Positions 6,426-39,550 of a stretch of 64,000 bases of DNA are shown one piece after another; position 1 is the first letter of the stretch; each line of letters opens with the position of its first letter. The DNA is taken from positions 24,926 through 88,925 of the forward strand of contig JBMOKT010000012.1 in assembly GCA_049323895.1 (NCBI GenBank). Direction: 5' to 3'. The notes beneath the pieces were generated by a model. It was not told the origin of the DNA and did not search any database. It saw only the letters and a program-made list of their open reading frames with translations. The DNA comes from Bacillota bacterium. Lineage in GTDB: Bacteria > Bacillota > Peptococcia > Peptococcales > BICA1-8. Both the position numbers and the translations under genes were made by a program.

Positions 6426-7031
6426 TTAATATCCCAAATCCTCTTTAATCAAAATAATATGAAACTCTTCTATACCACGAGTTCGTCCCTCATGGATTGT
6501 TAATACTCGGCATTGCTTCGTTGCCACTGTTTGGCAATCATGACATCGACCTGTTTTTTCACAGGGAGTATTAGCTTTCTTTCTCTTATATATTTGCGGT
6601 GCGGCAATATTTTTAGTCCTATAAATTGCCTCTTCTAAATTTTTTGTTATTTTGTTTTTCCCAATAACCGCAATTACTTTTCGAGGACCATAACACATAG
6701 AAGCAATACGGTTGCCTGTCCCATCCAAATTAACAAGCAGACCATCCTCTGTAATTGCATTTAAGCTTGTCAGGATAACATCGGCATTTAATTGTTCCAA
6801 TCTTTTGGTTCTATCGACATTCTCCCAGGTGTCAATTATCTTGTGTCCCAACGTTTTAAAAGATTCTGCTACCCCTAACTGTCGTATTGTAACTGAACCA
6901 GGTATCCCTATACTAGCTCCTGCCGGTATTATCGCTTTTAATATAGGAAGTAATTCTTCCGTTTTATCAAGGACTTTTAGTTGAAAACCTCTATTTGTCA
7001 GATTTTTTTCAAAAACTTCATAATTTTCCAT
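6426..7031 (-). CDS. LUD-domain (lactate utilization protein-like) protein
   Basis: PGSVTI, NAITEDG, NLDGTGNR, GKNKI, PC..TG.C.DC motifs; start moved to ATG 7031 near GAGGAGG. Confidence 0.8.
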   Translation of the reverse strand: MENYEVFEKNLTNRGFQLKVLDKTEELLPILKAIIPAGASIGIPGSVTIRQLGVAESFKTLGHKIIDTWENVDRTKRLEQLNADVILTSLNAITEDGLLVNLDGTGNRIASMCYGPRKVIAVIGKNKITKNLEEAIYRTKNIAAPQIYKRKKANTPCEKTGRCHDCQTVATKQCRVLTIHEGRTRGIEEFHIILIKEDLGY

Positions 7032-7114
7032 TATTTCATATAACCTCCTCTTAATAGTGCAGGATTTGAAATTATTTTGTTTAATTATAATACTAACACA
7101 AAAAATGGGGTGGA

Positions 7115-9262
7115 TTGGAAGTGGAGAAAAGAAAAAGTATTTGCTTTGTTGGAAACCATGAAAAAACTGCCTTAACACTTAGTAAACAGCTTAATTATCT
7201 GCTGGGTCAGTATCTTGATATAAAGTCGTGGTGTCTTCAGTACATGGAAATACCTATAGATTGTTATGACTGCGACGTTTATGTAACTTCCAGTTACACT
7301 GCTTTATCCAGAATTAAAGACAGTATTCCTCCTAACAAAAAAGTTATTGTAGCAGCAAGGACATTGGATACAAGTAATTTAGATAAAGTTTTAGAGCTGT
7401 TACCTGGGACACAAGCCTTAGTAGTTGCTAATTCGGAAGAAACAACAAACATGGCTATTGACCTTATGAAAAGAATGGGCATTGATTACCTTGATTTAAT
7501 ACCTTACTATCCTACAATTACACCTCACCCTGACAAGAATATTTCCCTCGCTATTACAACGGGATTGAGCCATCTTGTACCATCACACATCAAAAGAACT
7601 ATTGATTTAGGAGTTAAAAGTATTGATCTTTCTACCTATGTAGAGTTAATTATAGAAATAGGTCTTCCTAAAGAACTAATTAATAAAATATCCCAGCATT
7701 ATGTTACAGAAATATTTAATCTAAGCAAACGTATTCAAACTTCTGCTCAAATCAATAGTAATCTCAAGAGAAGATTGGAAGTAATAATTGATACAGTGGA
7801 TGAAGCCATTCTTGCCATTGATAAAGAACAACAAATAATTCTAATAAACTCTGCTTTTGAACAACTACTAGGTATCAACAGTTTTTCAGCCATCGGTCAA
7901 AAGCTAAATAAAATTCTGCCCCAGGTTGATTTAACATCGACACTTACCAATACTTTATGTATTGTGGATAAAATTCAACAAATTAAAAACAATTATTATG
8001 TCTTAAATGCCAATCCCATTTTAGATACAAATGGGGTAGTCGAGGGTGTTGTAACTACCTTTAAACCTGTAGGACAAGTACAAGAATTAGAATATAAAGT
8101 ACGCCGCGAATTAAAAAAACAAGGTAATATTGCTAAGTATAGCTTCAGTGATATTATTGGGACATCTTCAGAATTTGAAAAAGTCTCATCTTTAGCCCGC
8201 CAGTTTGCAAAAACAGATCTTACTATACTTATTGAAGGCGAAAGCGGGACCGGTAAAGAGTTATTTGCTCAAGCTATCCATAAAGCCTCAGATCGCAGAA
8301 GCGGACCTTTTGTAGCCATTAATTTTGCTGCACTACCCGACAATTTAATTGAGAGTGAACTTTTTGGCTATGAAGAAGGTGCTTTTACAGGTGCCAAAAA
8401 GGGTGGAAAGCCGGGCTTATTTGAAGAAGCTCATAATGGAACAATCTTTCTTGATGAAATAGGTGATTCCGGCTTAGAAGTGCAAAAAAGGCTTTTAAGG
8501 GTTTTGGAGGAACGGGAAGTGCGCCGGGTGGGAGGTCGAACAATAACACCTATAGATGTCAGGGTAATTGCTGCTACCAACCAAAATTTAACACAATTGG
8601 TTGAGAAAAACATGTTTCGCAGTGATTTGTTTTATAGATTATGTACTCTGCCCCTAAACATCCCTCCATTAAGAGATCGAGAAGGAGACATACTTATTTT
8701 TATCGACTATTTTGCCCATAAATTTTATCAGCGCAAACTGCTGTTAGATGCCCCTGTCAAAGAATTCCTATTAAGATACTACTGGCCCGGAAATATCAGG
8801 GAACTGGAGAATGTCGTAAACTATATGTGCAGTATAGTCCCCAAAGAAGAAACGGCCACTATAAAACATCTGCCAATTTATTTAACAAGAAATATAACAC
8901 CTACAATTGATACTGCTTTTAAACCTTACAATTTTGATAATAAATTTGATGTAAAGGCACAGGAATTAATGAATCGAGATCTCTTAAAAATTGTTTATCT
9001 TACCCTTCTGGAAATCCAAAGTTACTCATCCTTGGATAAAGGTTTGGGCAGGTCAACCTTGGCTAAAAGAATGACTGATTATACCGGCGAAGTATATGCT
9101 GATCATAGGCTAAGGCAGCTATTAAATCTTTTAACAAAGATGGAATTTATCGAATCGGGTAAAACAAAACAGGGTACCAAGATAACCCCTCTCGGCACAG
9201 AATTCCTTAGTTACTTGGAAAAATCAAAGTATCAAAACCTAATCGGAACTGCCGCTAAGTGA
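7115..9262 (+). CDS. Sigma-54-dependent enhancer-binding protein (PAS + AAA+ + C-terminal winged HTH)
   Basis: GESGTGKE Walker [32 protein letters not shown]. Confidence 0.95.
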
Positions 9263-9281
9263 CAGTTCCTACTCATTTATG

Positions 9282-10268
9282 CTAAATCTCTACTTTCTGC
9301 CCTTTATTCATTTGAATTGCCTTATCTAAGGCATGACCGGCCGTAATTAAATCTTGTACAGTAACTCCGCTGGTATCAAAAATAGTTAATTCCCTATCAT
9401 CTGTTCTTCCCTGTTTTTGACCCAAAATGACTTCACCAATTTCTCCGTAAATATTTTCTTTAGAAATCAGACCTTGGTTGAAGGCATGCTGTGTTTCGCC
9501 GATTGTAATACATTGATTTAGATTATCTACTACAATCTTGGCTTTGGTAAATAATTGGGGATCTATCTCCTGTTTGCCTTTAGTATCAGTGCCTATACAG
9601 TTAAGGTGTGTGCCTTCCTTTATCCACTCTGCCTTAACAATGTACTGATAGCTGGGAGTCGTTGTTAATATAACATCGGCATTACTGCAGACACTCTTTA
9701 CATCTTCACTAAATGTTATTTCTTGCTTTATTTGTCCGGCCATTTCCTCAGCCATTTTCTTAGCGGAGTCACTAAAAATATCATACACCTGGACTTGTTC
9801 GATAGAAGGCAAAACCTTTAATGCAGCCAATAATTGGTTTCTGCCTTGCAGTCCTGCTCCAATTACTGTCAATATTTTACTGTCTTTGCGGGCTAAATAT
9901 TTGCAACCCACTGCCCCTAAAGCAGCTGTTCTAATTTTTGTTATATAATTAGCTGCAATTAGTGCCTTAGGTTGACCGGTAAAGGGATTAAATAAAACCA
10001 TAGTGGATTGATGATTTGTTAATCCCTTCTCCATATTTTTTAACCAAAATCCGCCTGCCTTGAAGCCTAAGATTTCATCTTCTGTTAAATAACCGGACTT
10101 TATACCAAAAATCCCTTGATGTTTTTTTATTTCTTCCCTTACTACCGGGAATACCTCGCTTAAGCCATTCTGGAAGTCCGCAAAAGCCTTTTCAACCATG
10201 GTCATTGTTTCCTCAAAGGTTATTAATTCTTCTACATCTTGGTCTGTTAAAATGAAAACTTCAGCCAT
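9282..10268 (-). CDS. Ornithine cyclodeaminase/mu-crystallin family; iminosuccinate reductase (BhcD)-like
   Basis: RTAA, IGAGLQ, GTDTKGKQE, FDTSG..QDL; FPVVRE and KAGGFW...NHQST match BhcD as I recall it. Confidence 0.75.
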   Translation of the reverse strand: MAEVFILTDQDVEELITFEETMTMVEKAFADFQNGLSEVFPVVREEIKKHQGIFGIKSGYLTEDEILGFKAGGFWLKNMEKGLTNHQSTMVLFNPFTGQPKALIAANYITKIRTAALGAVGCKYLARKDSKILTVIGAGLQGRNQLLAALKVLPSIEQVQVYDIFSDSAKKMAEEMAGQIKQEITFSEDVKSVCSNADVILTTTPSYQYIVKAEWIKEGTHLNCIGTDTKGKQEIDPQLFTKAKIVVDNLNQCITIGETQHAFNQGLISKENIYGEIGEVILGQKQGRTDDRELTIFDTSGVTVQDLITAGHALDKAIQMNKGQKVEI

Positions 10269-10285: not shown

Positions 10286-11395
10286 TTACTGTGATTTGCC
10301 CCTACAGAGTATTGGCAGTTCTTCAACAACCTCTTCATTATCTACCAAATAGATTTTGTCATAAAGATTACAGGTGGGACAAACATGATTAGGTATTATT
10401 TCTACTTTCTCACCAATGGCAAGCCTTTGATTTAGTTCTTGATTATTTATTAAGCCGTGTTCATCATAAAGTTTGTTCAAGCGTATTTCTTCAGTACCTT
10501 TTAATAAACCAAACCCTGGCGTATAACAAATTCCCTTGTTACGAGCAAATGCAGTTAGAGCCTTTACTCCTGTATCCAATACAATTCTTTCCTTAGTAGG
10601 CTTGCTGACAACTGTACCTAATACAGTAACAGCACATTTACTATAGTCTCCTATTGCGTGTCCCTGTGCAGCATCCATTAAAACATACGTGCCGGGCCTT
10701 ATCTCAGTAATACCTGGCAGTATTTGCCCATGCATGATAGAGGGGGTAGCCCCTATACTAACTACCTCTATACTAATACCTGCGTCCCTGATTAATTTTG
10801 CAGCAAGTAAGGTTTCTTCTTGACTTTTTTTGAATAGTTCCGCACATACCTGTGGATTATCAGCACCATAGGTATGTCCTTCATGGGAAAAAATACCCCT
10901 CAACTTAACATTAGGAAGGCTTACTATATATTGAGCCAATTCAACAACTTCCGGTCCTGGAAGCAAACCCGATCTCTCTTCTCCCGTTTCTATCTCGATT
11001 GAGACTTCTATGGGTTTCTCTTCATTTTCGAATATTTGAGATAACAGTGTTACCTGTTCTCTATTATCAACACCTACTGCAACCTTTACTTTTTTTGCAA
11101 CCTCTCTTAATCTTTCCATTTTCTTTACACCGTAGATTTCGTTGGCTATAAATATATCGTCTAAGCCTGCTTCCGCCATGACTTCTGCTTCCCCTACCTT
11201 TGCTACCGTTATGCCTTTAGCGCCAGCTTCCACTTGCAACTTAGCTATGGCTGGTGTTCTGTGGGTTTTTGTATGGGGTCGCAGGTTTACGCCAAACCTG
11301 TCTGCTTTTTTCTGCATTTCCTTTATATTGCTTTCCATCACATTTTTTTGGACAATCAGTGCTGGTGTATCTAAATCCCACATGGTTTTCCTCAT
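10286..11395 (-). CDS. Fold-type III PLP enzyme (DSD1/D-threo-hydroxyaspartate dehydratase/D-threonine aldolase family)
   Basis: LDTPAL, RPHTKTH (PLP Lys), EIRPG, DEHG, PNHVCPT. Confidence 0.85.
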   Translation of the reverse strand: MRKTMWDLDTPALIVQKNVMESNIKEMQKKADRFGVNLRPHTKTHRTPAIAKLQVEAGAKGITVAKVGEAEVMAEAGLDDIFIANEIYGVKKMERLREVAKKVKVAVGVDNREQVTLLSQIFENEEKPIEVSIEIETGEERSGLLPGPEVVELAQYIVSLPNVKLRGIFSHEGHTYGADNPQVCAELFKKSQEETLLAAKLIRDAGISIEVVSIGATPSIMHGQILPGITEIRPGTYVLMDAAQGHAIGDYSKCAVTVLGTVVSKPTKERIVLDTGVKALTAFARNKGICYTPGFGLLKGTEEIRLNKLYDEHGLINNQELNQRLAIGEKVEIIPNHVCPTCNLYDKIYLVDNEEVVEELPILCRGKSQ

Positions 11396-12045
11396 AATAA
11401 AACTCCTCCTGCTGCTTCGTTATTTGCTAGTACAGTATCTTTGATAATATCGGCACATCTCACCTGATTAAAAATTCCACAATAACAGAAATTAGCCAGC
11501 TTTATAGCAGCTTCATCTTCCGTTAATCTTCCTTTGGTTACTTGGTCAATCATATGCTCCACAAATTTTGGGGGAATCATATGGTGACCGCACATAGTAG
11601 TTATAGAAAGTGTTGCGTCGTCAGGCAAGTTATCTTTTTTACCCCAGACACCTAGAGAATAGTTAATGGAATGGGGCATAACTCCCGCTTCTTTGCAAGC
11701 AGGCAAAACTTCTTCCAATACTCCTGTCACAACTACCGACTGACCTAAGTCTTTTTCTTTTATGCGTTTTAGAAACTCTACCACCTGTTCTCTTTTGGTA
11801 AAAACCCCTCTAATTCTTGATTTATCAGTAATTTTTTCTTGAATTTCTTCAACAGAGTATTGTGTTTTTGGTCCAGTCTTAACATCACCCCAGTTTTCAG
11901 AGCCAACAGCTTCTGCTGCAGCAATAAATTCCAAAGCCTTGGGTTTAATATTCACGTCATTTACGCCTTTTGTCTGATACATAAACCAGTTAAAATCTTT
12001 TTTTTGAGACTCTATTGGACCGGAACGGTGTAATGAATGTGTCAT
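11392..12045 (-). CDS. Uncharacterised His/Cys-motif protein, module copy 1
   Basis: MTHSLHR N-terminus, TMCGH, CYCGIFN; paralogs at 35579 and 38145. Confidence 0.85.
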   Translation of the reverse strand: MTHSLHRSGPIESQKKDFNWFMYQTKGVNDVNIKPKALEFIAAAEAVGSENWGDVKTGPKTQYSVEEIQEKITDKSRIRGVFTKREQVVEFLKRIKEKDLGQSVVVTGVLEEVLPACKEAGVMPHSINYSLGVWGKKDNLPDDATLSITTMCGHHMIPPKFVEHMIDQVTKGRLTEDEAAIKLANFCYCGIFNQVRCADIIKDTVLANNEAAGGVLL

Positions 12046-12057: not shown

Positions 12058-12792
12058 CTATGCTAATGATAAAGGTTTGCCCAAACCAACATTTACTTTA
12101 CCCCGGTGCGGTCTGGCAATGCCTAATTCATCCAAACAATCCAAAGTTTTGTTTTCTCCATTTTCATCCACCCGCAGGATTAAACCCAGAGAAAATACTG
12201 TATCAATTTCCTTTTCTACCTTTTGCAAGGCTTCTAATATTTGTTTCAATTCATTTTCCTGGCACTTTGCCTCTACAATAACTGAAAGCAAATGGTAGTT
12301 TAAGCATTCCTCAACAAGTTTGCCGGCTTTTAAGTCGGGTATTAAGGCTGCTAACGGGGTATGTTCAGCAGGAGCTAATTTTGCACCTGCTGCAGCAATA
12401 GCCATTGCTACTTTTTCGGCATCCCTTAAATAAACCCCCATCCCTGGTCTACCCATATCTATTGCTATACCGACTTCACCTTTTTTAATCCGTCCCGATA
12501 CATCATTAGTTTTAACCTCTTCAGTACCTCTTCCTGTCACACCTGTAACACCATGATTTTCTACTGGATCACTAATAACATGTTGGAATTGCTTATAAAA
12601 GTTATTTAATTCAATAGGTTCAATGGCACCCTTGGGACAAACTTTCTGGCGCAGACAGACATAACACTCTGTACATCTATCTTGGTCAATATAACATTTT
12701 TTTTCATCGTTGGAATAGAAAATAGCATCCACAGTACAATACTTATGACAAATTTTGCATCCTGTACATAAATCGGCATTTATTATTGTCAT
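12058..12792 (-). CDS. 2x[4Fe-4S] ferredoxin-domain protein with unknown C-terminal domain, module copy 1
   Basis: CTGCKICHKYC and CTECYVC...CP; GRGTEEVKTNDV. Confidence 0.85.
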   Translation of the reverse strand: MTIINADLCTGCKICHKYCTVDAIFYSNDEKKCYIDQDRCTECYVCLRQKVCPKGAIEPIELNNFYKQFQHVISDPVENHGVTGVTGRGTEEVKTNDVSGRIKKGEVGIAIDMGRPGMGVYLRDAEKVAMAIAAAGAKLAPAEHTPLAALIPDLKAGKLVEECLNYHLLSVIVEAKCQENELKQILEALQKVEKEIDTVFSLGLILRVDENGENKTLDCLDELGIARPHRGKVNVGLGKPLSLA

Positions 12793-12845
12793 TATTAGAT
12801 AGCTCCTTTCAGATAAAATCCCTGAAAAAATTCAGGGATAAAAAT

Positions 12846-14354
12846 TTATGCACTAATATTTGTATTTATATCAACAGGCTTTTTAAGGTTTTGATATGTA
12901 GTTCCAACAAAGGCAAGAATAGCAAGAATTATTAATGTAGTACTAATACCTGAGTTAAATAGTGCATCGTACCAGTTCCCTTTAGAAATAAGCAAGGCCC
13001 GTCGTAAATTTGCTTCCATAATAAACCCCAAAACGAAACCTAGTACTGTTGCTGTGTAAGGAATGGAAAACTTTTTCATTAGATAACCCAATAAACCGAA
13101 ACCGATAGTAACAAGGATACTAAAGGTTTCTCCACTATAAGCAAAAGAACCGGTGAAAACAAGGGCCATTATACTTGCAAATAAAACAGGTTTAGAAATT
13201 TTAGTAACCTTGATGGCAAGCTTAACAATGAAATAACCCATAATTAACATAAAAATGTTAGCAACCAACAAAGAAATAAAAATACTATAAGGTATTTCCG
13301 GCTGTTTGGTGAAAAGCAGAGGACCAGGCTGAACGTTATGAATCATTAGGGCCCCAAGCATTATTGCCGTTGAGTTAGAACCAGGTATACCTAAAGCTAA
13401 TAACGGAACCAAGGCACCACCGGTAACAGCGTTATTGGCAGCTTCCGGAGCGGCAACCCCTTTGATATTTCCTTTACCAAAGGTATCACCATCTTTACAC
13501 CATCTTTTTGCTTCACTATAAGCTACCCAACAGGCAGTGGATGCACCTACACCAGGCATGGCGCCAATAAGAACACCCATTAAGGAGCTAACAAATGAAA
13601 CGGGCAAAAATGTCTTAATAATATCCCAGCCCGGAAGGCTAGTATCAACCTTACCAACAATATTAAATTCAGAATCACCAGTTAATTCCTGAGCTTGACT
13701 TAAGAGTTCTGAGACGGCAAAAAGACCCATCATTAAGGCAATCATTTCAAAGCCATCTGCAAGATGCAAAGAACCAAGAGTATATCGGGGAATACCATTC
13801 ATAGGGTCATATCCTATTGTGGCTACGAAAATACCAAGAGCCCCTGCCAATAGCCCTTTAAATACATTACGACCCCCCAGCGAGCAAATCAAGGTTAAAC
13901 CGGCAATAGCTAAAGCAAAGTATTCAGAAGGACCAAATTTTAAAGCGACAGTTGAAAGTGGTATTGCTACAAACATTAAAACTAGGGCACTTAGAAATCC
14001 ACCTGTACATGATGAAATCAAAGAAGTCCCCAATGCGATACCTGCTTTACCCTGTTTATTTAGTTCATAACCATCAATAGTAGTTGCAGCAGCAGCAGTA
14101 GTACCAGGTGTACCAATCAAAATAGCAGGAATAGAACCGCCGTATTCGCCGCCACAGTATACCCCTGCCAACAATAATAGTGCATTAACAGGTTCCATTC
14201 CCCAGGTAAAAGGAAGGAGCAAGGCCATAGCGATAGTAGCATTAATACCGGGAATCATGCCGCCGATAATCCCCCACAGCACCCCAAGAGCTATGGCTGC
14301 TAAGGAGGACCAGTCAAATACATTTTCAACACCAATAAGTAAACCTTCTAACAT
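12846..14354 (-). CDS. tctA: Tripartite tricarboxylate transporter large permease
   Basis: GGSIPAILIGTPGT, DGY, APEAANNA, LGIPGS, PGPLLF. Confidence 0.92.
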   Translation of the reverse strand: MLEGLLIGVENVFDWSSLAAIALGVLWGIIGGMIPGINATIAMALLLPFTWGMEPVNALLLLAGVYCGGEYGGSIPAILIGTPGTTAAAATTIDGYELNKQGKAGIALGTSLISSCTGGFLSALVLMFVAIPLSTVALKFGPSEYFALAIAGLTLICSLGGRNVFKGLLAGALGIFVATIGYDPMNGIPRYTLGSLHLADGFEMIALMMGLFAVSELLSQAQELTGDSEFNIVGKVDTSLPGWDIIKTFLPVSFVSSLMGVLIGAMPGVGASTACWVAYSEAKRWCKDGDTFGKGNIKGVAAPEAANNAVTGGALVPLLALGIPGSNSTAIMLGALMIHNVQPGPLLFTKQPEIPYSIFISLLVANIFMLIMGYFIVKLAIKVTKISKPVLFASIMALVFTGSFAYSGETFSILVTIGFGLLGYLMKKFSIPYTATVLGFVLGFIMEANLRRALLISKGNWYDALFNSGISTTLIILAILAFVGTTYQNLKKPVDINTNISA

Positions 14355-14364
14355 TTTTAACCTC

Positions 14365-16420: not shown

Positions 16421-16421
16421 A

Positions 16422-31573: not shown

Positions 31574-31613
31574 ATAGGTAACCCCCTTATAATGGTTGCC
31601 AATCTCATTTGCT

Positions 31614-32342: not shown

Positions 32343-32405
32343 ATCTCACCCTCCGGCACTTTCTCCCCTAATAATGCCATAATTAACACAAAGTTCAAGA
32401 ATCTT

Positions 32406-33920
32406 TTAAGCAGCAATTTTTTTTGTTTTACCTTTTTGCAGCATATTCTTAATCACTGGTATAAATATGGCTCCAAAAGCAATAATCATGAGAATTGTAG
32501 AAATTGGTCTGGCAAAGAAAATGCCAAAACTTCCTTCAGATAAAATAAGCGACTGTCTCATGGATGTTTCTAATAATTGACCCAAAACAAGTGCTAGTAC
32601 CAGTGGCGCTCCGGGATATTTAAGCTTTTTCATGAAATATCCAACAAAGCCAAAACCAATGGTAAGATAAACATCAAACATGGAATTGTTTAAGCTATAG
32701 GCGCCCACCAGGATAAATGCCAAAACAACAGCATTTAGGGTAGCTTTGGGAACCTGTAAAATACGGACGAAAACCGGTACAAACAGTAGTACCATTAATA
32801 TTAAAATTACATTACCCACATACATGCTGGCTATTAGACCCCAAACAAAATCAGGGTTTCTCTCGAAAAGCATTGGTCCTGGTCTTAAACCAAACATCAT
32901 TAATGCACCCATTAAGATGGCTGTACTGGCTGAACCTGGTACACCAAGAGTTAATAACGGTACAAAGGCACCGACAGAGGCTGCATTATTTGCACATTCA
33001 GGTGCAGCTACCCCTTCAATTGCCCCTTTGCCAAATTCTTCGGGATTTTTAGATGCCTTTTTGGCCATTCCATAGGAGATAAATGAGGCAATTGTTGCCC
33101 CGGCACCAGGCAACATTCCGATAAAGAAACCAACCGCTGTTCCTCTGGCAATAGTCCATTTGGATCTAGCCCAATCCATTGCTGATGGAAACAGTTTTCT
33201 CCAACGGAGGTCAGCATTTTTAAGACCATCAATATTCACTTTTTCTTCCGAAGCCAGTATTATTTCAGCAATACCAAAAACACCCATAGCCACTGGAATA
33301 AAATCAATACCGCTGAACAATTCTATCATACCAAAGGTAAAACGAGGCATGCCCGTAACTAAATCTAAGCCAATTATTGCTAAGAATAAACCGACTAAAG
33401 CACTAATGAAACCTTTGACAGGATTTTCACCCGTCATTCCGGCTAGTGTTGTTAACCCAAGAACCATTAGGGCAAAATATTCTGGAGGACCAAAACTTAG
33501 GGCAGCCTTAGCTAAGGCTGGTGCTAAAAAAGTAAAAGCAATTACGGAAACTGTTCCGCCGATAAAGGAGCTAAATGCAGCCATACCCATGGCAGGACCT
33601 GCTTTGCCCTGTTGTGCCAAAGGGTAGCCATCCAAAGTAGTCATAACCGCCGCGGAATCCCCAGGAGTATTAATGAGGATAGAAGTTATAGAACCCCCGT
33701 ACATAGCACCATAATAGATTCCCGCTAACATAATAATTCCCGAAACAGGGTCTGACCCAAAGGTGATTGGCAGCAGTACTGCCAAACCGGCAGAAGGTCC
33801 CAAACCTGGCAGTGCACCGATAATGGTTCCAGAAACAACTCCTATTAAACAGTAGAGGATATTCATTGGAGTAATAGCTACTGTAAATCCGTATAAAAGA
33901 TTCGTAAGTGTTTCAAACAT
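32406..33920 (-). CDS. tctA: Tripartite tricarboxylate transporter large permease (second system)
   Basis: GALPGLGP, YGGSITSILINTPG, LDGY, APECANNA, PGPMLF. Confidence 0.92.
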   Translation of the reverse strand: MFETLTNLLYGFTVAITPMNILYCLIGVVSGTIIGALPGLGPSAGLAVLLPITFGSDPVSGIIMLAGIYYGAMYGGSITSILINTPGDSAAVMTTLDGYPLAQQGKAGPAMGMAAFSSFIGGTVSVIAFTFLAPALAKAALSFGPPEYFALMVLGLTTLAGMTGENPVKGFISALVGLFLAIIGLDLVTGMPRFTFGMIELFSGIDFIPVAMGVFGIAEIILASEEKVNIDGLKNADLRWRKLFPSAMDWARSKWTIARGTAVGFFIGMLPGAGATIASFISYGMAKKASKNPEEFGKGAIEGVAAPECANNAASVGAFVPLLTLGVPGSASTAILMGALMMFGLRPGPMLFERNPDFVWGLIASMYVGNVILILMVLLFVPVFVRILQVPKATLNAVVLAFILVGAYSLNNSMFDVYLTIGFGFVGYFMKKLKYPGAPLVLALVLGQLLETSMRQSLILSEGSFGIFFARPISTILMIIAFGAIFIPVIKNMLQKGKTKKIAA

Positions 33921-33936
33921 TCATATCCCTACCTTT

Positions 33937-34395
33937 CTATAACCCAAAGAAGCCTTTGGGGAATGGAACATCTAAACCTATCCGGAATATTAAATAAAGA
34001 ACCAGAGGCAGAATAACCATCATACCGATGGAAGTAAAAATTTTACGTTCCTCTGCCAAAAAGGTAACTAAAAAGCCAGCTAATAAGCCCATGGAAATAA
34101 TCATACCTAAGAAATTTACTAGCAGCCCTGCAATTACTGCACTGCCAATTAAGGTAATCAGCAGCTTAAACCCTTCTTTTGAAAACACTTCCGTTTCTGT
34201 TTTAGAACCGGCTTTAAAAGTTTGGTATAACAATATAACTGAAGTTAAAGCTAAAAGGAGACCAACACAAAAAGGTACAAATCCCGGACCCGGACCTTCA
34301 TCTCCCCACCAAAGTTCCAAGGAAACTCCGCTAATGAGGATATAAATAGAAAGGGCTAATAACATTGCACCAGCTATCCTATCTGCTTTTTTCAC
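33937..34395 (-). CDS. tctB: Tripartite tricarboxylate transporter small permease (second system)
   Basis: GPGPGFVP, C-terminal LDVPFPKG. Confidence 0.85.
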   Translation of the reverse strand: MKKADRIAGAMLLALSIYILISGVSLELWWGDEGPGPGFVPFCVGLLLALTSVILLYQTFKAGSKTETEVFSKEGFKLLITLIGSAVIAGLLVNFLGMIISMGLLAGFLVTFLAEERKIFTSIGMMVILPLVLYLIFRIGLDVPFPKGFFGL

Positions 34396-34476
34396 TTACA
34401 TACCACCCCTTCTCTTAATCAGTGACAAATACTTGTTTTTAAGGGGAGAGTCCCCCTCTCCCCTTAAATTAAAATA

Positions 34477-35505
34477 CTATTTTGCAGCACCAATTTGTTT
34501 AAAGATATCTGCATACATATCGCTTAATTCTACTATAGCTTTGCTAAACTCTTCGGAACCCAAGAAACGCGGAGTGATGGAGTTTTTCTTAATATAATCT
34601 TCCTGCCATGCACCACTCTCGTGCAGCTTTCTAAGCACGTCTTCCCAATACTTAACTGCCTCTGCAGGAGCATCTTTTGGTAAAACAACTCCTCTGAACT
34701 GAGCCAAACTTGCGTTTACTCCTTCTTCGATCAAAGTTGGTACATTATCAAAGCCCGGAATTCTTTCCTTACTTGCTACTACTATTGCTCTTGCCTTGCC
34801 GCCTTCAACCTGGTTTAACGCTTCACCAGGGTTAGCCCAAACTAGGTCTACGTGTCCACCTAAAAGGGCTGTCATTGCTTGACCACCACTCTCAAAAGGA
34901 ACATATTTTAATTCTATACCCGCCTTGTCCTGAAGTACGCGATACATAACAGCGTCATCGGAAGTACCACTTGTACCACCAACTGCCAGACTCTTAGGCT
35001 TAGCTTTTGATTTTTCAATTACTTGTTTTACACTGGTAATTTCAGAATCTTCCCTAACAAATAAAGCTAAAGTATCCATTGCCAACCCTGCAACAGGTGT
35101 GAAATCCTTATAGGAAACAGGTGAATTTCCTAAAAGAGGCGCTGTGTAGAAACTGGAACTAACTGATGCCATATAATATGGATTACCTTTTTTTTCTGCT
35201 ACATAAGCATAACCAATGGATCCACTGCCGCCTGGCTTGTTAACAACGTTAATAGGCTGGCTTACCCATTTGCTGTCAGTAATAACTTTTACCATTGATC
35301 TAGCCATGATGTCACTACCACCACCGGCACCGAAAGGAACTATGAACTCGATAGCTCTTTCAGGATAAGCAGGTTTTGGTGGTTCAGCCTTTGGTTGTTC
35401 CTTAGGAGTTTCCTTAGGTGCTGATGAGCAGCCTCCTACCAAAGTGACTACTAACATAACCGCCAAAAGTAAAGCCAATATCTTTCTCATTTTCATAAAA
35501 TCCAC
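34477..35505 (-). CDS. tctC: Tripartite tricarboxylate transporter substrate-binding lipoprotein (second system)
   Basis: Lipobox VGGC; YPERAIEFIVPFGAGGGSD, NKPGGSG, LLGGHVD. Confidence 0.9.
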   Translation of the reverse strand: MDFMKMRKILALLLAVMLVVTLVGGCSSAPKETPKEQPKAEPPKPAYPERAIEFIVPFGAGGGSDIMARSMVKVITDSKWVSQPINVVNKPGGSGSIGYAYVAEKKGNPYYMASVSSSFYTAPLLGNSPVSYKDFTPVAGLAMDTLALFVREDSEITSVKQVIEKSKAKPKSLAVGGTSGTSDDAVMYRVLQDKAGIELKYVPFESGGQAMTALLGGHVDLVWANPGEALNQVEGGKARAIVVASKERIPGFDNVPTLIEEGVNASLAQFRGVVLPKDAPAEAVKYWEDVLRKLHESGAWQEDYIKKNSITPRFLGSEEFSKAIVELSDMYADIFKQIGAAK

Positions 35506-35578
35506 CTCCGTTTTTTAATTAACACTTCTTCAAACCCCCGGGGAAAACTTTCTCTTCCTTCCACCTCCTTAAAACATG

Positions 35579-36226
35579 TTAGGCTTTATCTGCTTCTGCT
35601 TCTTGAGGTACATATTTTTCCAGAAGTTTTTCTGCTCTATCTGGGTTATAGATACCGCACACACAGGGGTGTGATATCTTAACAGCAGCATCTTTAACGG
35701 TCATACGACCTTTCTTTACTTTCTCAATACAATCTTCAACTAATCCGGAGGAAATCAGGCCATGTCCGCACATAGTTACTAACTCCAATACCTCTTCTGA
35801 AGGCAGTTTTTCAACGTTACCCCACACTTCTAAAGAAAGGTTTACGCAATGGGGCTTGATATCCAATTCCCGGGCAATATCCAATACTTCATCGGTCAAT
35901 CCGCTAACAGTAACAGACAAGCCCTGGTCTAATTCCACAATTCTTTTCAATACCTCTTTCATCTTTTCCTTAGAAGAAAAGGCACATCTAACTCTAGGAA
36001 CATCATTTAATGCATCGCGTATTTCCTGAATGTCAACACCTGATAAAATTGTCCCTGTGTCATACGACCCGATATTACTGGGTCCTAAATCAAATACTTC
36101 ATCTAATACCTTTCTCATCTTATCCTTGGAACCCTCATGGTTAAATCCATAAGCTGAAGTGACCAGTAAAACGTAATCATCTTTTAAACTTTCTTCAGTT
36201 CCTCTGCGGTGCAGTGAATGTGTCAT
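35579..36226 (-). CDS. Uncharacterised His/Cys-motif protein, module copy 2
   Basis: MTHSLHRRG, TMCGH, CVCGIYN. Confidence 0.85.
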   Translation of the reverse strand: MTHSLHRRGTEESLKDDYVLLVTSAYGFNHEGSKDKMRKVLDEVFDLGPSNIGSYDTGTILSGVDIQEIRDALNDVPRVRCAFSSKEKMKEVLKRIVELDQGLSVTVSGLTDEVLDIARELDIKPHCVNLSLEVWGNVEKLPSEEVLELVTMCGHGLISSGLVEDCIEKVKKGRMTVKDAAVKISHPCVCGIYNPDRAEKLLEKYVPQEAEADKA

Positions 36227-36238
36227 TTAGTTCCCCCC

Positions 36239-36967
36239 CTATTTTGTCACTAAAGGTCTGCCAAGACCTAAGTTAACTTTAGAATTTTTACGTACCCTTA
36301 TTCCCATTTCTTCCAATACAGGAAGGATAGGCAATGAACCATCTTCGCTAAAGCGATATATCATATCCAGGGAAAAAACAGTGTCTAATTCACTGGCAAC
36401 TTTTTTGATGACATCCATCACCGGCACTAATTGGGATTCAGGGATACCAAACTCAATAATACAGGAAACCATCTTTTCATTCATATATTCCGGTTTGATT
36501 GTCCCTTTTTCCCTGTCAGCCATTAAATGGGTTAGCGGATTCATCTCTTCAAATTCAATCCCCAGCTTCCCTAGGGCAGTAGTCATTTTCTGTACTTGTT
36601 CCATATTTGTGCCTAAGCAAGGACGACCCATTTCAATAGCAATTCCGATTTGTCCACGGACAACCCTGCCTGTAACATCATTTGTTTTTACTTCCTCAGT
36701 ACCTCTTCCAGGAATTTTAGTTACTGAGTGGGTAGTCATAGGGTCACTAAAGAACTTCCTCGCAGCTCTTGTTCCCTCATAGAGTCCTGGCTGCTCAAAA
36801 AATGCCTTTTTGGGACACCTAACAACTCTAATACGGCTGCAGTTTCCGCATTCAAAACATGCATCTTCATCAATACTAGCTTTTTTATCAACTACTGTAA
36901 TCGCATTGGCAGGGCAATAAGGCACACATATACCACAGCCGCTGCATTTTTCTTGATCAATTCTCAT
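36239..36967 (-). CDS. 2x[4Fe-4S] protein, module copy 2
   Basis: CSGCGICVPYCP, CFECGNC...CP, GRGTEEVKTNDV, EMGRP. Confidence 0.85.
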   Translation of the reverse strand: MRIDQEKCSGCGICVPYCPANAITVVDKKASIDEDACFECGNCSRIRVVRCPKKAFFEQPGLYEGTRAARKFFSDPMTTHSVTKIPGRGTEEVKTNDVTGRVVRGQIGIAIEMGRPCLGTNMEQVQKMTTALGKLGIEFEEMNPLTHLMADREKGTIKPEYMNEKMVSCIIEFGIPESQLVPVMDVIKKVASELDTVFSLDMIYRFSEDGSLPILPVLEEMGIRVRKNSKVNLGLGRPLVTK

Positions 36968-36987
36968 TTATTTACCTCCTAGTTAAC

Positions 36988-38052
36988 TTAGATAATTGAC
37001 TCCGGTAAAGGAACCGAAAATTTAACTGACAGCTGTTCAAATTTTTCTAATAATTCTTTGCCTAGGGAAATACCCCTTGCATAATTGGTTTTGGCTAACT
37101 CCCTTTCCCTTTCCCCAGGCATTCTTATTTCATCATAACCATATGCTTTGGGGAGACTCTTCATTTCACCAATCATGGCATCCATTCTGGATCTAATTTC
37201 CTCTAAGTCTAAAAATCCCTGAGGATTTATCGCAATCATTAGATGCCCCACATTACTTGGGTCTAAGGAGTCACTGTATTGCCAGATGACACCTTTGCCA
37301 TAACCTGCCCCGGTTAGTAAGCCCGACAACATTTCAATTGCCATTGCCAGAGCAGCACCTTTATGTGCTCCCATGGGCAGAATGCATCCTTTTAAGGCTT
37401 CTTTAGCATCGGCAGTGGGTTTACCCTCACTGTCCAAGGCCCAGTCCGGACCAATAGGTTCGCCCTCTTGAGCAGCCTTTATAATTTTGCCCCGTGCAAC
37501 TATACTGGTTGCCATATCGATTGAAATTGGTCCAAAATCCGATCCTCCCGGAATAGATATTGCCAAGGGATTTGTTCCAAAATAGGCCTCCCGTCCTCCC
37601 CAAGGCGGGATAGCAGGTGGTCCATTTGCAATTACAATACCTACTAAATTTTCTTCTAGCGCCATATTGGCATAATAGGAAGCAGCACTGAAATGATTGC
37701 TGTTTTTAACACCTACTGCAGCAATACCAAACTCTTTTGCCTTCTTTATTACAGTTTTCATTGCCTCATATGCTGCTACATGACCCAGTCCATTATCCGC
37801 ATCAACTATGGCCAGAGCAGGAAAATTAAAAACAGTCTTAATAACAGGCTCTTTGTTTATCAATCCCTTTTCCAGCCTCTCCAAATAGACAGGCAGCCTG
37901 GTCAATCCATGGGACCCAACACCCTCCAAATCTGCTTGGATAAGGACCTTGACCACTATTTGGGCATCTTCCTTTTTTATTCCCGAATTAATGAGCAGCT
38001 TTTCTGAAAAGTCAATTAATTCCGGAACCGAAAACAAATTATTACTCTTCAT
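36988..38052 (-). CDS. Ldh_2 family (malate/L-lactate/sulfolactate/ureidoglycolate dehydrogenase-like) oxidoreductase
   Basis: GVGSHG, DADNGLG, NSNHF, GTNPLA, DMATS, HKG, RMPG. Confidence 0.9.
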   Translation of the reverse strand: MKSNNLFSVPELIDFSEKLLINSGIKKEDAQIVVKVLIQADLEGVGSHGLTRLPVYLERLEKGLINKEPVIKTVFNFPALAIVDADNGLGHVAAYEAMKTVIKKAKEFGIAAVGVKNSNHFSAASYYANMALEENLVGIVIANGPPAIPPWGGREAYFGTNPLAISIPGGSDFGPISIDMATSIVARGKIIKAAQEGEPIGPDWALDSEGKPTADAKEALKGCILPMGAHKGAALAMAIEMLSGLLTGAGYGKGVIWQYSDSLDPSNVGHLMIAINPQGFLDLEEIRSRMDAMIGEMKSLPKAYGYDEIRMPGERERELAKTNYARGISLGKELLEKFEQLSVKFSVPLPESII

Positions 38053-38144
38053 TTATATCCCACCAGTTTATTTAATTAAAGAAGGATAAGGAAAGGGCAG
38101 CGGGGAACAAATCCCTAACCCTATCCTCCCAGGGGGTTAACTAG

Positions 38145-38801
38145 TTATTCAGAAGCAGCTGCAGCTTCTTTCTCTGCTGCTTTTCCAACTGTCTCGGTTA
38201 TAATTTCTGCACATCTGACCTGGTTAAAAATACCGCAATAGCAGAAGTTAGCCAGTTTTATAGCTGCTTCATCCTCTGTTAAACGTCCTTTTCTAACTTG
38301 ATCAAACATATGCTCTACGAATTTAGGTGGAATCATATGGTGCCCACACATAGTAGTAATAGATAGTGTAGTGTCATCAGGCAAATTGTCTTTTTTACCC
38401 CAAACTCCTAGTGAATAATTAATTGAATGAGGCTTTACCCCAGCTTCTTCACAAGCAGGTAAAACTTCACTTAATACTCCTGTTATTACAACTGACTGGT
38501 CTAAATCCTTTGCCTTGATTTGCTTTAAAAATTCAACAACCTGTTCCTTTTTAGTAAATACACCCCTAATCCGGGACTTATCTATAATGCGTTCTTTGAT
38601 ATACTCGCTAGGATACTGGGTGATAGGTCCAGTCTTAACATCACCCCAATTTTCTGAACCCAAGGCCTCTGCAACTGCGATAAACTCTAATGCCTTGACC
38701 TTAATATTGGTATCATTAACACCTTTTGTTTGATACATAAACCAGTTAAAGTCCTTTTTCTGTGACTCAATGGAACCTGAGCGATGCAGTGAATGGGTCA
38801 C
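38145..38801 (-). CDS. Uncharacterised His/Cys-motif protein, module copy 3
   Basis: GTG start; THSLHRSG, TMCGHH, CYCGIFN; near-identical to copy 1. Confidence 0.85.
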   Translation of the reverse strand: MTHSLHRSGSIESQKKDFNWFMYQTKGVNDTNIKVKALEFIAVAEALGSENWGDVKTGPITQYPSEYIKERIIDKSRIRGVFTKKEQVVEFLKQIKAKDLDQSVVITGVLSEVLPACEEAGVKPHSINYSLGVWGKKDNLPDDTTLSITTMCGHHMIPPKFVEHMFDQVRKGRLTEDEAAIKLANFCYCGIFNQVRCAEIITETVGKAAEKEAAAASE

Positions 38802-38815
38802 TTAACCTTCCTCCT

Positions 38816-39550
38816 TTACGCTAATGATAATGGTTTGCCAAGACCCACATTTACCTTTCCGCGGTAGGGCTGGGGTATTCCCAGTTCATCAAGGCATTCC
38901 AGGGCTTTTGTTTGTCCCTTTTCATCTGTTCTAAGTATTAAACCTAAGGAAAAGACAGTATCTATTTCCTTTTCTACCTTCTGTAAAGCTTTAAGTATGG
39001 TAGGCAGTTCCGCTTCTTTGCATTTTGCTTCGACGATAACAGATAATAGATGGTAATCCAAGCAATCTTCCTCTAATTTTCCCGTTTTTAAATCAGGCAT
39101 CAATGCTGCAAGGGGGGTGTGCTCTGCAGGGGCTAATTCGGCACCAACAGCTGCAATTGCCATAGCTACCTTTTCGGCATCCCTTAAAAATACTCCCATG
39201 CCGGGACGCCCCATATCAATTGCTATCCCTACTTCTCCCTTTTTTGTACGACCGGAAACATCATTTGTCTTTACCTCTTCCGTTCCCCTGCCGCTGACAC
39301 CGGTTACCCCGTGGCTTTCCACCGGATCGCTGATAACATGCTGGAACTGCTTATAAAAAGTATCTAACTCAATAGGCAGTATTGCTCCTTTGGGGCAAAC
39401 CTTCTGCCGAAGGCAAACATAGCACTCTGTACACCTTTGTTGGTCAATCCAGCACTTTTTATCCTCAGCGGAGTAATGAATAGCATCAACTGTACAATAT
39501 TTGTTACAAATTTTACAGCCATTGCACAAATCCTTATTGATAATTGTCAT
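38816..39550 (-). CDS. 2x[4Fe-4S] protein, module copy 3
   Basis: CNGCKICNKYC, CTECYVC...CP, GRGTEEVKTNDV; ATG 39550 after AAGGAG aligns with the copy 1 start. Confidence 0.85.
   Translation of the reverse strand: MTIINKDLCNGCKICNKYCTVDAIHYSAEDKKCWIDQQRCTECYVCLRQKVCPKGAILPIELDTFYKQFQHVISDPVESHGVTGVSGRGTEEVKTNDVSGRTKKGEVGIAIDMGRPGMGVFLRDAEKVAMAIAAVGAELAPAEHTPLAALMPDLKTGKLEEDCLDYHLLSVIVEAKCKEAELPTILKALQKVEKEIDTVFSLGLILRTDEKGQTKALECLDELGIPQPYRGKVNVGLGKPLSLA

Follow-up and report, generated by a model that had tools for sequence, protein, structure and literature searches.

An orphan catabolic locus with a candidate sigma-54 regulon and pairs of an unnamed Fe–S protein family in a sulfite-reducing anaerobe

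A block of ∼33 kb (positions 6426–39550) in the stretch of DNA analysed here, a 64-kb window of the genome of a Peptococcaceae-like bacterium (G000), is a genuine orphan catabolic locus. It encodes two tripartite tricarboxylate transporter (TTT) systems together with hydro-lyases, a racemase, a dehydratase, dehydrogenases and three pairs of Fe–S proteins, and is divided into five transcription units. We propose, with a probability of about 0.6, that it is a two-part catabolic locus for several related hydroxy and amino di- and tricarboxylates. Gene families were assigned from an open reading frame (ORF) listing and from Pfam and NCBIfam scans of 41 ORFs. The locus genes are long open frames whose families are supported at E values of 1e-14 to 1e-170, hence they are not chance frames, and all of them lie on the minus strand save an activator gene and a PrpD-family gene, which are both on the plus strand. 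A first-pass annotation of this DNA had named the gene inventory and arranged it in five transcription units. Pfam and NCBIfam recovered every one of its families in place, the promoters and terminators detected are consistent with five units, and the right end at 39550 is the start codon of the last Fe–S gene.

Enzymes of these families act on hydroxy and amino di- and tricarboxylates, and all the families that had been held typical of such chemistry are present. The host is a sulfite-reducing Peptococcaceae-like anaerobe, as its genome encodes DsrA (551 bits, above the cut-off, in agreement with the anaerobic lifestyle first assumed) and DsrB. As a whole the locus is regarded as an orphan catabolic gene cluster. 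An open-access full-text literature search, which took in two papers on LarA enzymes (PMC7583248, PMC11770544), gave no pathway of this gene composition, in agreement with the earlier remark that the pathway could not be matched to a described one. The same search returned no relevant literature for a hydroxycitrate degradation gene cluster, no counterpart of an anaerobic tartrate/LarA/dehydratase/epimerase cluster among the matches listed, and no match for isopropylmalate isomerase, tripartite tricarboxylate transport and lactate racemase together.

Several of the families are expanded in the host, which has 12 TctC, four LarA, four split-UxaA and 18 sigma-54 activator genes. Twelve TctC genes are probably unusual for a Firmicute. 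Nine genes contain an Aconitase_C domain, three of them full-length aconitases and six of LeuD type. Housekeeping paralogues of LeuD and aconitase are thus encoded outside the locus. Judged by coordinates, two of the three LeuD-type genes there are no more than 20 kb away from a TctC, UxaA-paralogue or activator gene, and the remaining one is ∼8 kb from an activator gene. Given this expansion of the Aconitase_C, TctC, LarA and split-UxaA families, the LeuCD pairs of the locus are regarded as extra copies.

Regulation and conservation of the units

Units 1 to 4 together cover 9282–30475. Unit 1 (minus strand) contains LeuC1D1, TctCBA1, a hairpin, Fe–S pair 1, a pyridoxal 5′-phosphate (PLP) enzyme and an OCD-family gene, and unit 2 (minus) contains LeuC2D2 and an Iso_dh-family gene. 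Unit 3 (plus) is the PrpD-family gene, while unit 4 (minus) comprises the large and SAF subunits of a split UxaA, LarA, an enolase-superfamily gene, an aconitase, LeuC3D3 and a C_GCAxxG gene. The window was searched for the sigma-54 consensus TGGCAY-N5-TTGCW (-24/-12, with a GG-N10-GC core), and four perfect sites were found where 0.21 were expected, a number reached in none of 100 shuffles. All four sites are intergenic and each is oriented toward the first gene of a unit. The unit 1 promoter (17766–17781, minus; TGGCATAGAATTTGCA) precedes LeuC1, the unit 2 promoter (20820–20835, minus) precedes LeuC2 and is divergent from that of unit 3 (20987–21002, plus) in front of the PrpD-family gene, and the unit 4 promoter (30460–30475, minus) precedes the UxaA large subunit. 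Across the whole genome there are 30 perfect sites compared with three for a reversed-pattern control, and rpoN is encoded (452 bits, above the cut-off).

The four promoters share an upstream word, TTAGGY, which lies at -60 to -115, often in tandem with 11-bp spacing, and which for units 2 and 3 is situated between the two divergent promoters. The tandem form TTAGGT-N5-TTAGGT occurs twice in 64 kb, each time upstream of locus sigma-54 promoters, starting at 17893 (minus) for unit 1 and at 30566 (minus) for unit 4. In the 170 nt upstream of 17 perfect promoter matches, taken from the window and from the orthologous loci of three relatives, TTAGGY occurs 38 times in 2,805 nt compared with 4.1 expected from a background of 179,184 nt, a contrast whose nominal P-value overstates the case because orthologues and divergent promoters share DNA. 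Within the window, the three sigma-54 intergenic regions hold two, two and three copies, and the nine other intergenic regions of at least 80 nt hold none. The word precedes all four window promoters and, in the orthologous loci of the relatives, 12 of 13 matches to the promoter consensus, and is absent upstream of five unrelated sigma-54 promoters (four in the same genome and one in a relative's paralogous cluster). A palindrome, TTTGGG-N12-CCCAAA (20882–20905), was also considered as the shared enhancer and was rejected, as it occurs only once.

The only sigma-54 activator gene of the window (7115–9262, plus; Sigma54_activat 2.1e-67, an enhancer-binding AAA+ protein with a PAS domain) adjoins these units and is 85–87% identical in the relatives G008 and G006; its N-terminal 220 residues match no Pfam family at E up to 0.1. 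The 3.9-Mb genome as a whole relies heavily on sigma-54 for its catabolic operons, and several of its activator genes lie within a few kb of TctC, LeuD-type or split-UxaA genes. Four sigma-54 promoters, a private TTAGGY word and one activator gene alongside lead us to regard units 1 to 4, on these sequence signals, as one regulon, for which the adjacent PAS activator is, by its position, the candidate binder of TTAGGY. The clear promoter and enhancer signature gives a direct experimental handle on the regulon. Between TctA1 and Fe–S pair 1 a hairpin with a T tail (12818–12839, minus) may act as an attenuator or mark a module boundary, and in G006 the module downstream of it is found elsewhere under its own promoter.

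Unit 5 (30683–39550, minus) contains, in order of transcription, Fe–S pair 3, an Ldh_2-family gene, Fe–S pair 2, TctCBA2, a GntR/FCD regulator (31614–32342, minus; FCD 5e-29, GntR 3e-19) and a DHDPS-family gene, after which a strong intrinsic terminator with a 17-bp stem (30646–30684, minus) closes the unit. No sigma-54 promoter match was found for this unit and TTAGGY has no occurrence in 39551–39811, and since a GntR/FCD gene lies inside it, unit 5 is probably regulated apart from units 1 to 4 and probably responds to a different ligand. Co-induction of the operons, on which the first-pass annotation had staked its reading, would by these signals hold for units 1 to 4, which share sigma-54 promoters and the private word, but unit 5 has neither.

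The locus occurs with the same gene order in G008, G006 and G005, genomes of two other genera of the host's family, with 73–94% protein identity for the catabolic genes; the comparison extends as far as the examined contigs of these genomes and includes left-flank genes. The presence-or-absence comparison with relatives that had been proposed earlier gave no orthologue in the other five family genomes. When LarA was the query, the best matches in these five of eight family genomes were at most 38% identical. LarA orthologues of 87–89% identity are known from only three other genomes, the next relatives being at most 40% identical, and a separate search for related loci found LarA proteins of 87–89% identity in contigs of three named metagenome-assembled genomes (MAGs), Peptococcaceae bacterium BICA1-8, Peptococcaceae bacterium Bins.048 and Clostridiaceae bacterium BRH_c20a. 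The portions available of the Opalinus Clay MAG paper (PMC5067608) give BRH_c20a as the MAG of a new genus and contain no statement on this locus. For the UxaA large subunit, orthologues above 90% were found among 88 genomes of the class in G008, G006 and G005 only, the next best match being 47%, and among 5.8 billion clustered proteins the relatives are 100, 90 and 68% identical and then at most 49%. The orthologues of LarA and of the UxaA large subunit are in the same four genomes, and no locus orthologues were found elsewhere in the 88-genome class sample.

The promoters are conserved with the genes. That of LeuC1 keeps its GG-N10-GC core in G008 and G006, with one mismatch and with TTAGGY words upstream, the unit 4 promoter is conserved in all three relatives, and the divergent LeuC2/PrpD promoters have orthologous counterparts. 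In G006 the Fe–S/PLP/OCD module has been relocated and has its own GG-N10-GC promoter, again preceded by TTAGGY words. In G008, PrpD is followed by a DASS-family di/tricarboxylate carrier, and a further sigma-54 unit, which likewise has TTAGGY words, encodes two M29-like peptidase homologues and a third TctCBA. In G005 the genes of a Na+-pumping oxaloacetate decarboxylase (OAD; alpha, carboxyltransferase, gamma, biotin carrier and beta; L032 (G005:C40) 3040–8276) are inserted in unit 4 between LarA and the enolase gene, and the interval between PrpD and LeuC2 contains a gene, under a sigma-54 promoter of its own, for a 549-aa protein with four rhodanese domains (L032 15610–17259). The OAD insert and the DASS carrier fit di/tricarboxylate fermentation. 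In the host genome itself the OAD beta gene sits on another contig than the locus.

The block had been called an island. In the mobile sense this does not hold: the G+C content is ordinary (0.34–0.42 inside the locus and 0.35–0.42 outside), no integrase or transposase family is among the 41 ORFs scanned with Pfam, no att-like direct repeat of the nearby tRNA-Pro(CGG), its 3′ part included, is found in 1–41000, and synteny is kept in two other genera. The locus is hence a rare accessory one, conserved by lineage and with no recognisable mobile element.

A paired family of Fe–S proteins

The Fe–S pair is the most novel element of the locus, all other enzyme families being known. Three Fe–S modules had been annotated; three are present, and each is a two-gene pair. 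Pair 1 (minus) consists of 12058–12792, encoding a 244-aa 2×[4Fe-4S] protein (the large subunit), and 11392–12045, encoding a 217-aa Cys/His-rich partner (the small subunit). Pair 2 (36239–36967 and 35579–36226, minus) is 38–41% identical to pair 1. Pair 3 (38816–39550 and 38145–38801, minus), the first genes of unit 5, shares 85% protein identity and 70–81% DNA identity with pair 1. The pair has five copies in the host genome, and the two outside the window lie at G000:C33:4388–5754 and G000:C32:4873–6222.

In this family the 2×[4Fe-4S] protein has about 240 aa and the Cys/His-rich protein about 210 aa, the latter beginning MTHSLHR. The 217-aa partner of pair 1 matches no sequence in the PDB even at an E value of 1, gives only sub-threshold noise with Pfam and is placed by the ESM Atlas in clusters named only 'hypothetical protein'. 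Its monomer model has a mean predicted local distance difference test (pLDDT) score of 96 and no significant fold match, the best Foldseek E value being 0.07 and the best VIA-align Z 6.5 to generic ferredoxin-like alpha/beta domains. In an alignment of 103 members R7, C152, G153, H154, C187, C189 and N193 are invariant, and M1, H3, H6, H125 and others are nearly so. In the large subunit, the N-terminal 2×[4Fe-4S] ferredoxin domain is recognised (Z about 8), the C-terminal alpha/beta domain has generic matches only (Z about 6), and Atlas relatives are unnamed clusters or carry plain ferredoxin names. Its two most conserved loops (79–98 and 229–244) are poorly modelled in the monomer.

The two proteins are predicted to form a heterodimer. 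Complex prediction gave the Fe–S pair a score of 0.91 compared with 0.00 for the best of three controls, with a pLDDT of at least 88 for the partner and at least 85% agreement in contacts between runs. In a calibration that holds only roughly, as own alignments were used here, 116 of 157 solved complexes attained this mark, as did 2 of 215 mismatched pairs. The predicted interface brings the conserved loops of the large subunit together with the N-terminus and the Cys/His motifs of the small subunit. In one natural protein, P0267, the two subunits are fused. It is one of three forms of more than 380 aa that were examined among the 150 listed of 475 representatives; the other two, P0192 and P0212, contain further Fe–S domains. 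No longer fused forms of the small subunit scored in a word-indexed search, which is a weak test.

The family comprises 475 representative clusters at 50% identity (E up to 0.001), and every source name among 812 word-indexed relatives is 'hypothetical protein'. Of 401 genomes sampled from the phylum, 29 gave a match to the pair, some with as many as seven copies. In 29 loci of other genomes the ferredoxin subunit is nearly always followed by the small subunit, and the neighbours include TTT components (10 loci), TRAP DctM (3), a 2-hydroxycarboxylate transporter (1), Zn-dependent dehydrogenases (5), Pyr_redox_2 flavoproteins (4, in three cases accompanied by a Prismane-like gene), GntR/FCD regulators (3), 2-oxoacid:ferredoxin oxidoreductase (2) and DHDPS (1). 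The pair usually adjoins carboxylate transporters, in many anaerobes, and we infer that it is a heterodimeric redox enzyme of an undescribed family that acts on imported organic acids. It is of interest apart from the locus, being unnamed and having neither a Pfam family nor a structural relative, yet with a confidently predicted fold.

Enzyme families and competing explanations

A function was called where a protein exceeded an NCBIfam equivalog cut-off, subfamily models being counted apart. The aconitase alone passes such a cut-off; as substrates of the locus, tartrate-, isocitrate- or hydroxycitrate-like acids, 3-hydroxyaspartate and sulfolactate would each fit in part. The aconitate hydratase (24649–26625, minus; 658 aa, of the 650-aa type) scores 846 bits with NF005558 (cut-off 612) and 785 bits with TIGR01342 (cut-off 719) and is one of three copies in the genome. 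The hydro-lyases LeuD1/LeuC1 (15920–17681), LeuD2/LeuC2 (18995–20772) and LeuD3/LeuC3 (22878–24641; all minus) belong to the aconitase family by Pfam and NCBIfam and pass the subfamily models NF001614, TIGR02086 and TIGR02087, but no equivalog. LeuD1/LeuC1 is of the archaeal-type isopropylmalate isomerase/homoaconitase subfamily (NF001614 473 bits, TIGR02087 192 bits). LeuC1–3 score 398–455 bits with TIGR02083 (cut-off 611) and the LeuC proteins 359–417 bits with HacA (cut-off 550), and LeuD1–3 score 154–187 bits with TIGR02084 (cut-off 246). The LeuD specificity loops of pairs 1 to 3 read YMTH, YVVL and HRAK; loop motifs of the family are YLRT in homoaconitase and YLV(Y/M) in isopropylmalate isomerase. 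The comparison might point to substrates that differ between the pairs, but it was given no weight. The beta-decarboxylating dehydrogenase of the Iso_dh family (17890–18972, minus; Iso_dh 8e-84) reaches no equivalog, and its solved relatives are an NAD-dependent isocitrate dehydrogenase (6lky, 8e-68), homoisocitrate dehydrogenase (3asj, 4e-66) and tartrate dehydrogenase (3flk, 2e-54).

The two complete sets of adjacent TctC, TctB and TctA genes that define TTT systems are TctA1-TctB1-TctC1 (12846–15900, minus; TctA 8e-146, TctB 9e-17, TctC 8e-39) and TctA2-TctB2-TctC2 (32406–35505, minus; all above Pfam cut-offs). The best solved relatives of TctC1 are uncharacterised TTT binding proteins (2e-37). 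The LarA homologue (27679–28947, minus; Lar_N 1e-56, LarA_C) has both domains of a nickel-pincer nucleotide (NPN)-dependent 2-hydroxyacid racemase/epimerase, and NPN biosynthesis is represented in the genome by LarC. It is nearest to malate racemases (Mar2, 6d6z, 8e-72) and stays below their equivalog cut-offs, with 381 bits for LarAH6 (cut-off 500) and 325 bits for LarAH5 (cut-off 462). The gene start of LarA is followed upstream by a split dehydratase of UxaA/GarD/SuyAB type, in which the large subunit (29264–30376, minus; GD_AH_C 7.5e-83; best solved relative galactarate dehydratase GarD, 6u7l, 4e-48) is transcribed before the 98-aa SAF subunit (28944–29240, minus; SAF 4.5e-9). The enolase-superfamily protein (26591–27682, minus; MR_MLE_C 1.3e-52) is of the MLE subgroup and nearest to dipeptide and N-acyl-amino-acid epimerases (2p88, 7e-71; L-Ala-D/L-Glu epimerase 1jpm, 3.5e-64). 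The last gene of unit 4 (22433–22891, minus) encodes a C_GCAxxG_C_C putative redox-active protein (Pfam 2.2e-33).

The MmgE/PrpD gene (21041–22390, plus; 75–79% identical in relatives) was assigned to the correct family in the first-pass annotation; the start given there, 21002, falls inside the promoter, and the true ATG is at 21041 behind a GGAGG site. Its product scores 41–48 bits with PrpD equivalogs (cut-offs 458–950), and its nearest solved relatives are iminodisuccinate epimerase (2hp3, 8e-48) and B. subtilis IRG1 (both ∼1e-47). By sequence it lies nearer to iminodisuccinate epimerase and to bacterial IRG1/cis-aconitate decarboxylase homologues than to 2-methylcitrate dehydratase. The PLP enzyme (10286–11395, minus; Ala_racemase_N and D-ser_dehydrat) is a fold-type III protein that appears from its sequence to belong with D-threonine aldolase, D-threo-3-hydroxyaspartate dehydratase and BhcC. 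It had been labelled a PLP dehydratase; the PLP family stands, and the dehydratase part is uncertain, the best solved relative being D-threonine aldolase (4v15, 2.3e-50), followed by D-threo-3-hydroxyaspartate dehydratase (3wqc, 4e-38), with 190 bits for BhcC (cut-off 690). Adjacent to it is an OCD/mu-crystallin protein resembling an NAD(P)H imine reductase or cyclodeaminase (9282–10268, minus; OCD_Mu_crystall 9e-78; 317 bits with the BhcD model NF045643, cut-off 500). In unit 5, the Ldh_2-family 2-hydroxyacid dehydrogenase (36988–38052, minus; Ldh_2 1.7e-122) is nearest to L-sulfolactate and type-2 malate dehydrogenases, and the DHDPS-family lyase or aldolase (30683–31573, minus, with its start at 31573; DHDPS 5.6e-59) scores 196.6 bits with dapA (cut-off 206).

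From the chemistry of these families we propose the following, in which every reaction and substrate is conditional. Part A (7115–30475) would be the sigma-54 regulon, its PAS activator binding the TTAGGY repeats 60–115 bp upstream of the four promoters. TctCBA1 would import the acids, on which the three LeuCD-type hydro-lyases and the aconitase may shift hydroxyls along malate- or citrate-type skeletons, while the LarA homologue would invert C2-OH centres and the enolase-superfamily epimerase C-alpha-H centres. The split UxaA-type dehydratase could then turn vicinal hydroxy acids into 2-oxo acids, the PrpD-family protein isomerise or decarboxylate aconitate-like intermediates and the Iso_dh enzyme perform oxidative beta-decarboxylation. 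In a side module, Fe–S pair 1, the PLP enzyme and the OCD protein may convert a 3-hydroxyaspartate-like compound into an ordinary amino or oxo acid, and the end products would be the central 2-oxo acids oxaloacetate, 2-oxoglutarate and pyruvate. Part B (30683–39550) would be a separate, GntR/FCD-associated operon with TctCBA2, Ldh_2, a DHDPS-type lyase and two Fe–S pairs, and the Fe–S pairs would act as heterodimeric redox enzymes on imported acids.

Several points weigh against this two-part proposal. Beyond the aconitase and the subfamily-level LeuCD pairs no enzyme reaches an equivalog cut-off and no substrate is named by the models, even the nearest proteins of solved structure match LarA, UxaA, Iso_dh, Ldh_2 and the PrpD-family, PLP and enolase-superfamily proteins with E values of only 1e-47 to 1e-73, and TctC1 is without a close characterised relative. 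Each of the families is versatile, and OCD, Ldh_2, DHDPS and enolase members also serve hydroxyproline and peptide metabolism, so that the term 'polycarboxylate' may not be wide enough to cover the side modules; the PLP enzyme could be a dehydratase or an aldolase. The regulation is read from sequence alone, the activator is paired with TTAGGY by gene position, and the TTAGGY enrichment has too favourable a P-value as the orthologous regions are non-independent.

A bolder form of the proposal, which we hold only tentatively, takes units 1 to 4 as an undescribed anaerobic route that collects stereoisomers and the Fe–S pair as a new class of heterodimeric metallo-oxidoreductase for imported organic acids. 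The acids might be, for example, isocitrate or hydroxycitrate diastereomers and their lactones, tartrates, or an aminopolycarboxylate, which the LarA and enolase-type epimerases would bring to one configuration. A SuyAB-like dehydratase and the LeuCD hydro-lyases would then yield 2-oxo acids of the oxalosuccinate or oxaloacetate type for decarboxylation. The active site of the Fe–S enzyme would lie at the interface, where the small subunit would contribute its invariant N-terminal His-x-x-His-Arg together with Cys-Gly-His and Cys-x-Cys, and the large subunit its GRGTEExKTN loop. Subsurface sulfate-reducing Firmicutes have expanded sets of orphan LeuCD-like, LarA-like, split-UxaA and PrpD-like paralogues. 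Identification of the substrates would give functions to these proteins and would reveal organic acids on which the organisms live.

Described systems resemble parts of the locus. Like LeuCD–LeuB, HacAB–AksF and aconitase–isocitrate dehydrogenase, it has two-subunit hydro-lyases beside an Iso_dh-family enzyme; unlike them, it reaches no equivalog for LeuC/D, HacA/B, LeuB, AksF, isocitrate dehydrogenase or tartrate dehydrogenase, has no condensing enzyme and has three LeuCD pairs and an aconitase in one candidate regulon. The malate racemase Mar2 has the same Lar_N and LarA_C domains, but the protein here is under the LarAH6 cut-off. Desguin et al. (2020; PMC7583248) point out that LarA enzymes of this type could in reality act on tartrate or acids like it. 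The adjacent fold-type III PLP and OCD genes, for which BhcC and BhcD are the best NCBIfam models, recall the beta-hydroxyaspartate cycle, and a D-threo-3-hydroxyaspartate dehydratase is among the solved relatives; however, neither the aminotransferase family of BhcA nor the Ser/Thr-dehydratase family of BhcB was found in the locus by Pfam, and the two genes are preceded by a Fe–S pair under sigma-54. Enterobacterial tartrate and citrate fermentation proceeds by di/tricarboxylate uptake, dehydration to oxaloacetate and a decarboxylation coupled to a Na+ pump. The OAD genes within unit 4 of G005 are in keeping with such operons, but the dehydratase here is of UxaA type rather than a class-I fumarase-type TtdAB, and no citrate lyase family is among the Pfam results for the locus. 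A LUD-domain (LutC-like) gene and Fe–S proteins in a hydroxy-acid locus bring LutABC to mind, but no LutA (CCG) or LutB (DUF3390) domain was found in the locus by Pfam and NCBIfam, and the Fe–S pairs are a different, unnamed family that in other genomes is usually without a LUD gene.

Sulfolactate degradation (SuyAB, ComC/SlcC and TTT) offers the main rival, although we consider it unlikely that Ldh_2, TctCBA2, the split UxaA and LarA of the right-hand part form an organosulfonate module for 3-sulfolactate. In such a module a TTT system would take up the compound, LarA would racemise (S)- to (R)-sulfolactate, or a ComC-like Ldh_2 would do so by oxidation and reduction, and a SuyAB-like sulfo-lyase would release pyruvate and sulfite, the latter to be respired by DsrAB. 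The split UxaA has the two-subunit SAF and UxaA-C architecture of SuyAB, and some homologues of 42–43% identity are automatically named '(2R)-sulfolactate sulfo-lyase subunit beta'; the names of the 41–48% homologues are mixed, however (altronate dehydratase, UxaA hydrolase, SuyB), and do not discriminate. In suyAB genes the order is the opposite of the large-before-small order seen here. The best solved relative of Ldh_2 is L-sulfolactate dehydrogenase (2x06, 7e-73), but with 332 bits it remains below the model's cut-off of 500. A TTT carrier and ComC are known from Chromohalobacter, and the host encodes DsrA and DsrB. In Desulfovibrio sp. DF1, sulfolactate lysis is reported to feed sulfite respiration (PMC6278857). 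The four-rhodanese protein with its own sigma-54 promoter inside the regulon of G005 also speaks for this rival. G006 has a paralogous cluster of GntR, split UxaA (47%), Ldh_2, activator, TctBAC and LarA (40%), adjoined by ComA, ComB, another LarA (37% by tblastn, 36% by BLASTP) and TctCBA, an arrangement that ties these genes to sulfolactate within the lineage and suggests that the LarA beside phosphosulfolactate synthase and phosphatase genes is a sulfolactate racemase. On the other hand, Pfam detects neither a sulfite exporter nor any further sulfonate gene family in the locus. The regulon's aconitase, Iso_dh enzyme, PrpD-family protein, enolase-superfamily protein and three LeuCD pairs would go unexplained, and the UxaA and LarA genes lie in unit 4, whose regulation probably differs from that of unit 5 with Ldh_2 and TctCBA2.

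It is about as doubtful that units 1 to 4 encode one linear pathway for a single substrate with several stereocentres, such as an aminopolycarboxylate (iminodisuccinate, an opine or a siderophore) or hydroxycitrate and its lactone, with each isomerase or epimerase serving one centre. One regulon with one activator and one transporter would suit this, as would the iminodisuccinate epimerase relative of the PrpD-family protein, the similarity of the enolase member to epimerases of N-acylated amino acids and dipeptides, the BhcD-like OCD gene, whose family can process secondary amines or imines, and the two M29-like peptidase homologues in the extra sigma-54 unit of G008. However, four aconitase-family hydro-lyases are hard to fit into one linear route, the independent movement of the Fe–S/PLP/OCD module in G006 points to modules, Pfam finds no C–N lyase or amidase family among the window genes, and no literature counterpart was found. 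That the LeuCD, Iso_dh and aconitase genes serve biosynthesis, by 2-oxoacid chain elongation for an amino acid, cofactor or secondary metabolite, seems very improbable. The best models are indeed archaeal-type isopropylmalate isomerase, homoaconitase and homoisocitrate dehydrogenase, and homoisocitrate dehydrogenases are among the solved relatives of Iso_dh, but Pfam finds no condensing enzyme in the locus (isopropylmalate, homocitrate or citramalate synthase; HMGL-like), and the genes are co-transcribed with an uptake system in a regulon with racemases and dehydratases, so that their ties to uptake, racemases and a sigma-54 activator argue for a catabolic context. The situation of the three other LeuD-type genes of the six in the genome, near TctC, UxaA-paralogue or activator genes, speaks against it as well. 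We give equally little credence to the units being unrelated operons that lie side by side without a common function: unit 5 is without the shared signals and modules are rearranged or supplemented in relatives, but the enhancer word is common and private to units 1 to 4, gene order is kept across three genera, and the LarA and UxaA large-subunit orthologues occur in the same four genomes. The two-part catabolic locus remains our preferred reading.

Borders of the locus and side observations

On the right, the terminator of an upstream gene without known family (39779–39797, minus) marks the boundary of the locus. That gene (39812–40372, minus; 186 aa) matches no Pfam family at E up to 0.1, and neither it nor the ORF at 44414–45094 (minus; 226 aa) could be assigned to a family of Pfam or NCBIfam with the thresholds applied. 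At 0.9 kb beyond the right end follows a tRNA-Pro(CGG) gene (40501–40577, minus), which has a terminator to itself. A glycerate kinase gene further on had been suggested to take up glycerate from tartrate decarboxylation; with a terminator, the gene without known family and the tRNA-Pro gene in between, it cannot be tied to the locus.

On the left, the locus begins with the gene of a LUD-domain (LutC-like) protein (6426–7178, minus; LUD_dom 8.5e-38), which is divergent from the activator gene; in G008 and G006 the activator is likewise adjoined by a copy of 57–67% identity. The flank beyond it (134–6207) encodes a CBS/DRTGG/GntR-type regulator that is SpxR-like (318 bits, cut-off 600), a ProC/F420-oxidoreductase-like protein, a sodium:solute symporter and a protein of 549 aa in which a partial Glu_synthase domain is all that was recognised. 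The examined contig parts of G008, G006 and G005 gave no counterpart of the gene for this 549-aa protein, and the symporter gene is present among the relatives in G006 only. The genes of the regulator and of the ProC/F420-oxidoreductase-like protein are conserved beside the locus in G008 and G006.

The paralogous cluster of G006 lies in L091/L092 (G006:C57:78000–117999). Its Ldh_2 is spread over two ORFs and is possibly broken, and its activator is of the sigma-54 type with a PrpR_N domain. After LarA come 2-oxoacid:ferredoxin oxidoreductase and succinyl-CoA-ligase-like genes, and then GntR, ComA, ComB, a pyruvate-kinase-like gene, LarA and TctCBA.

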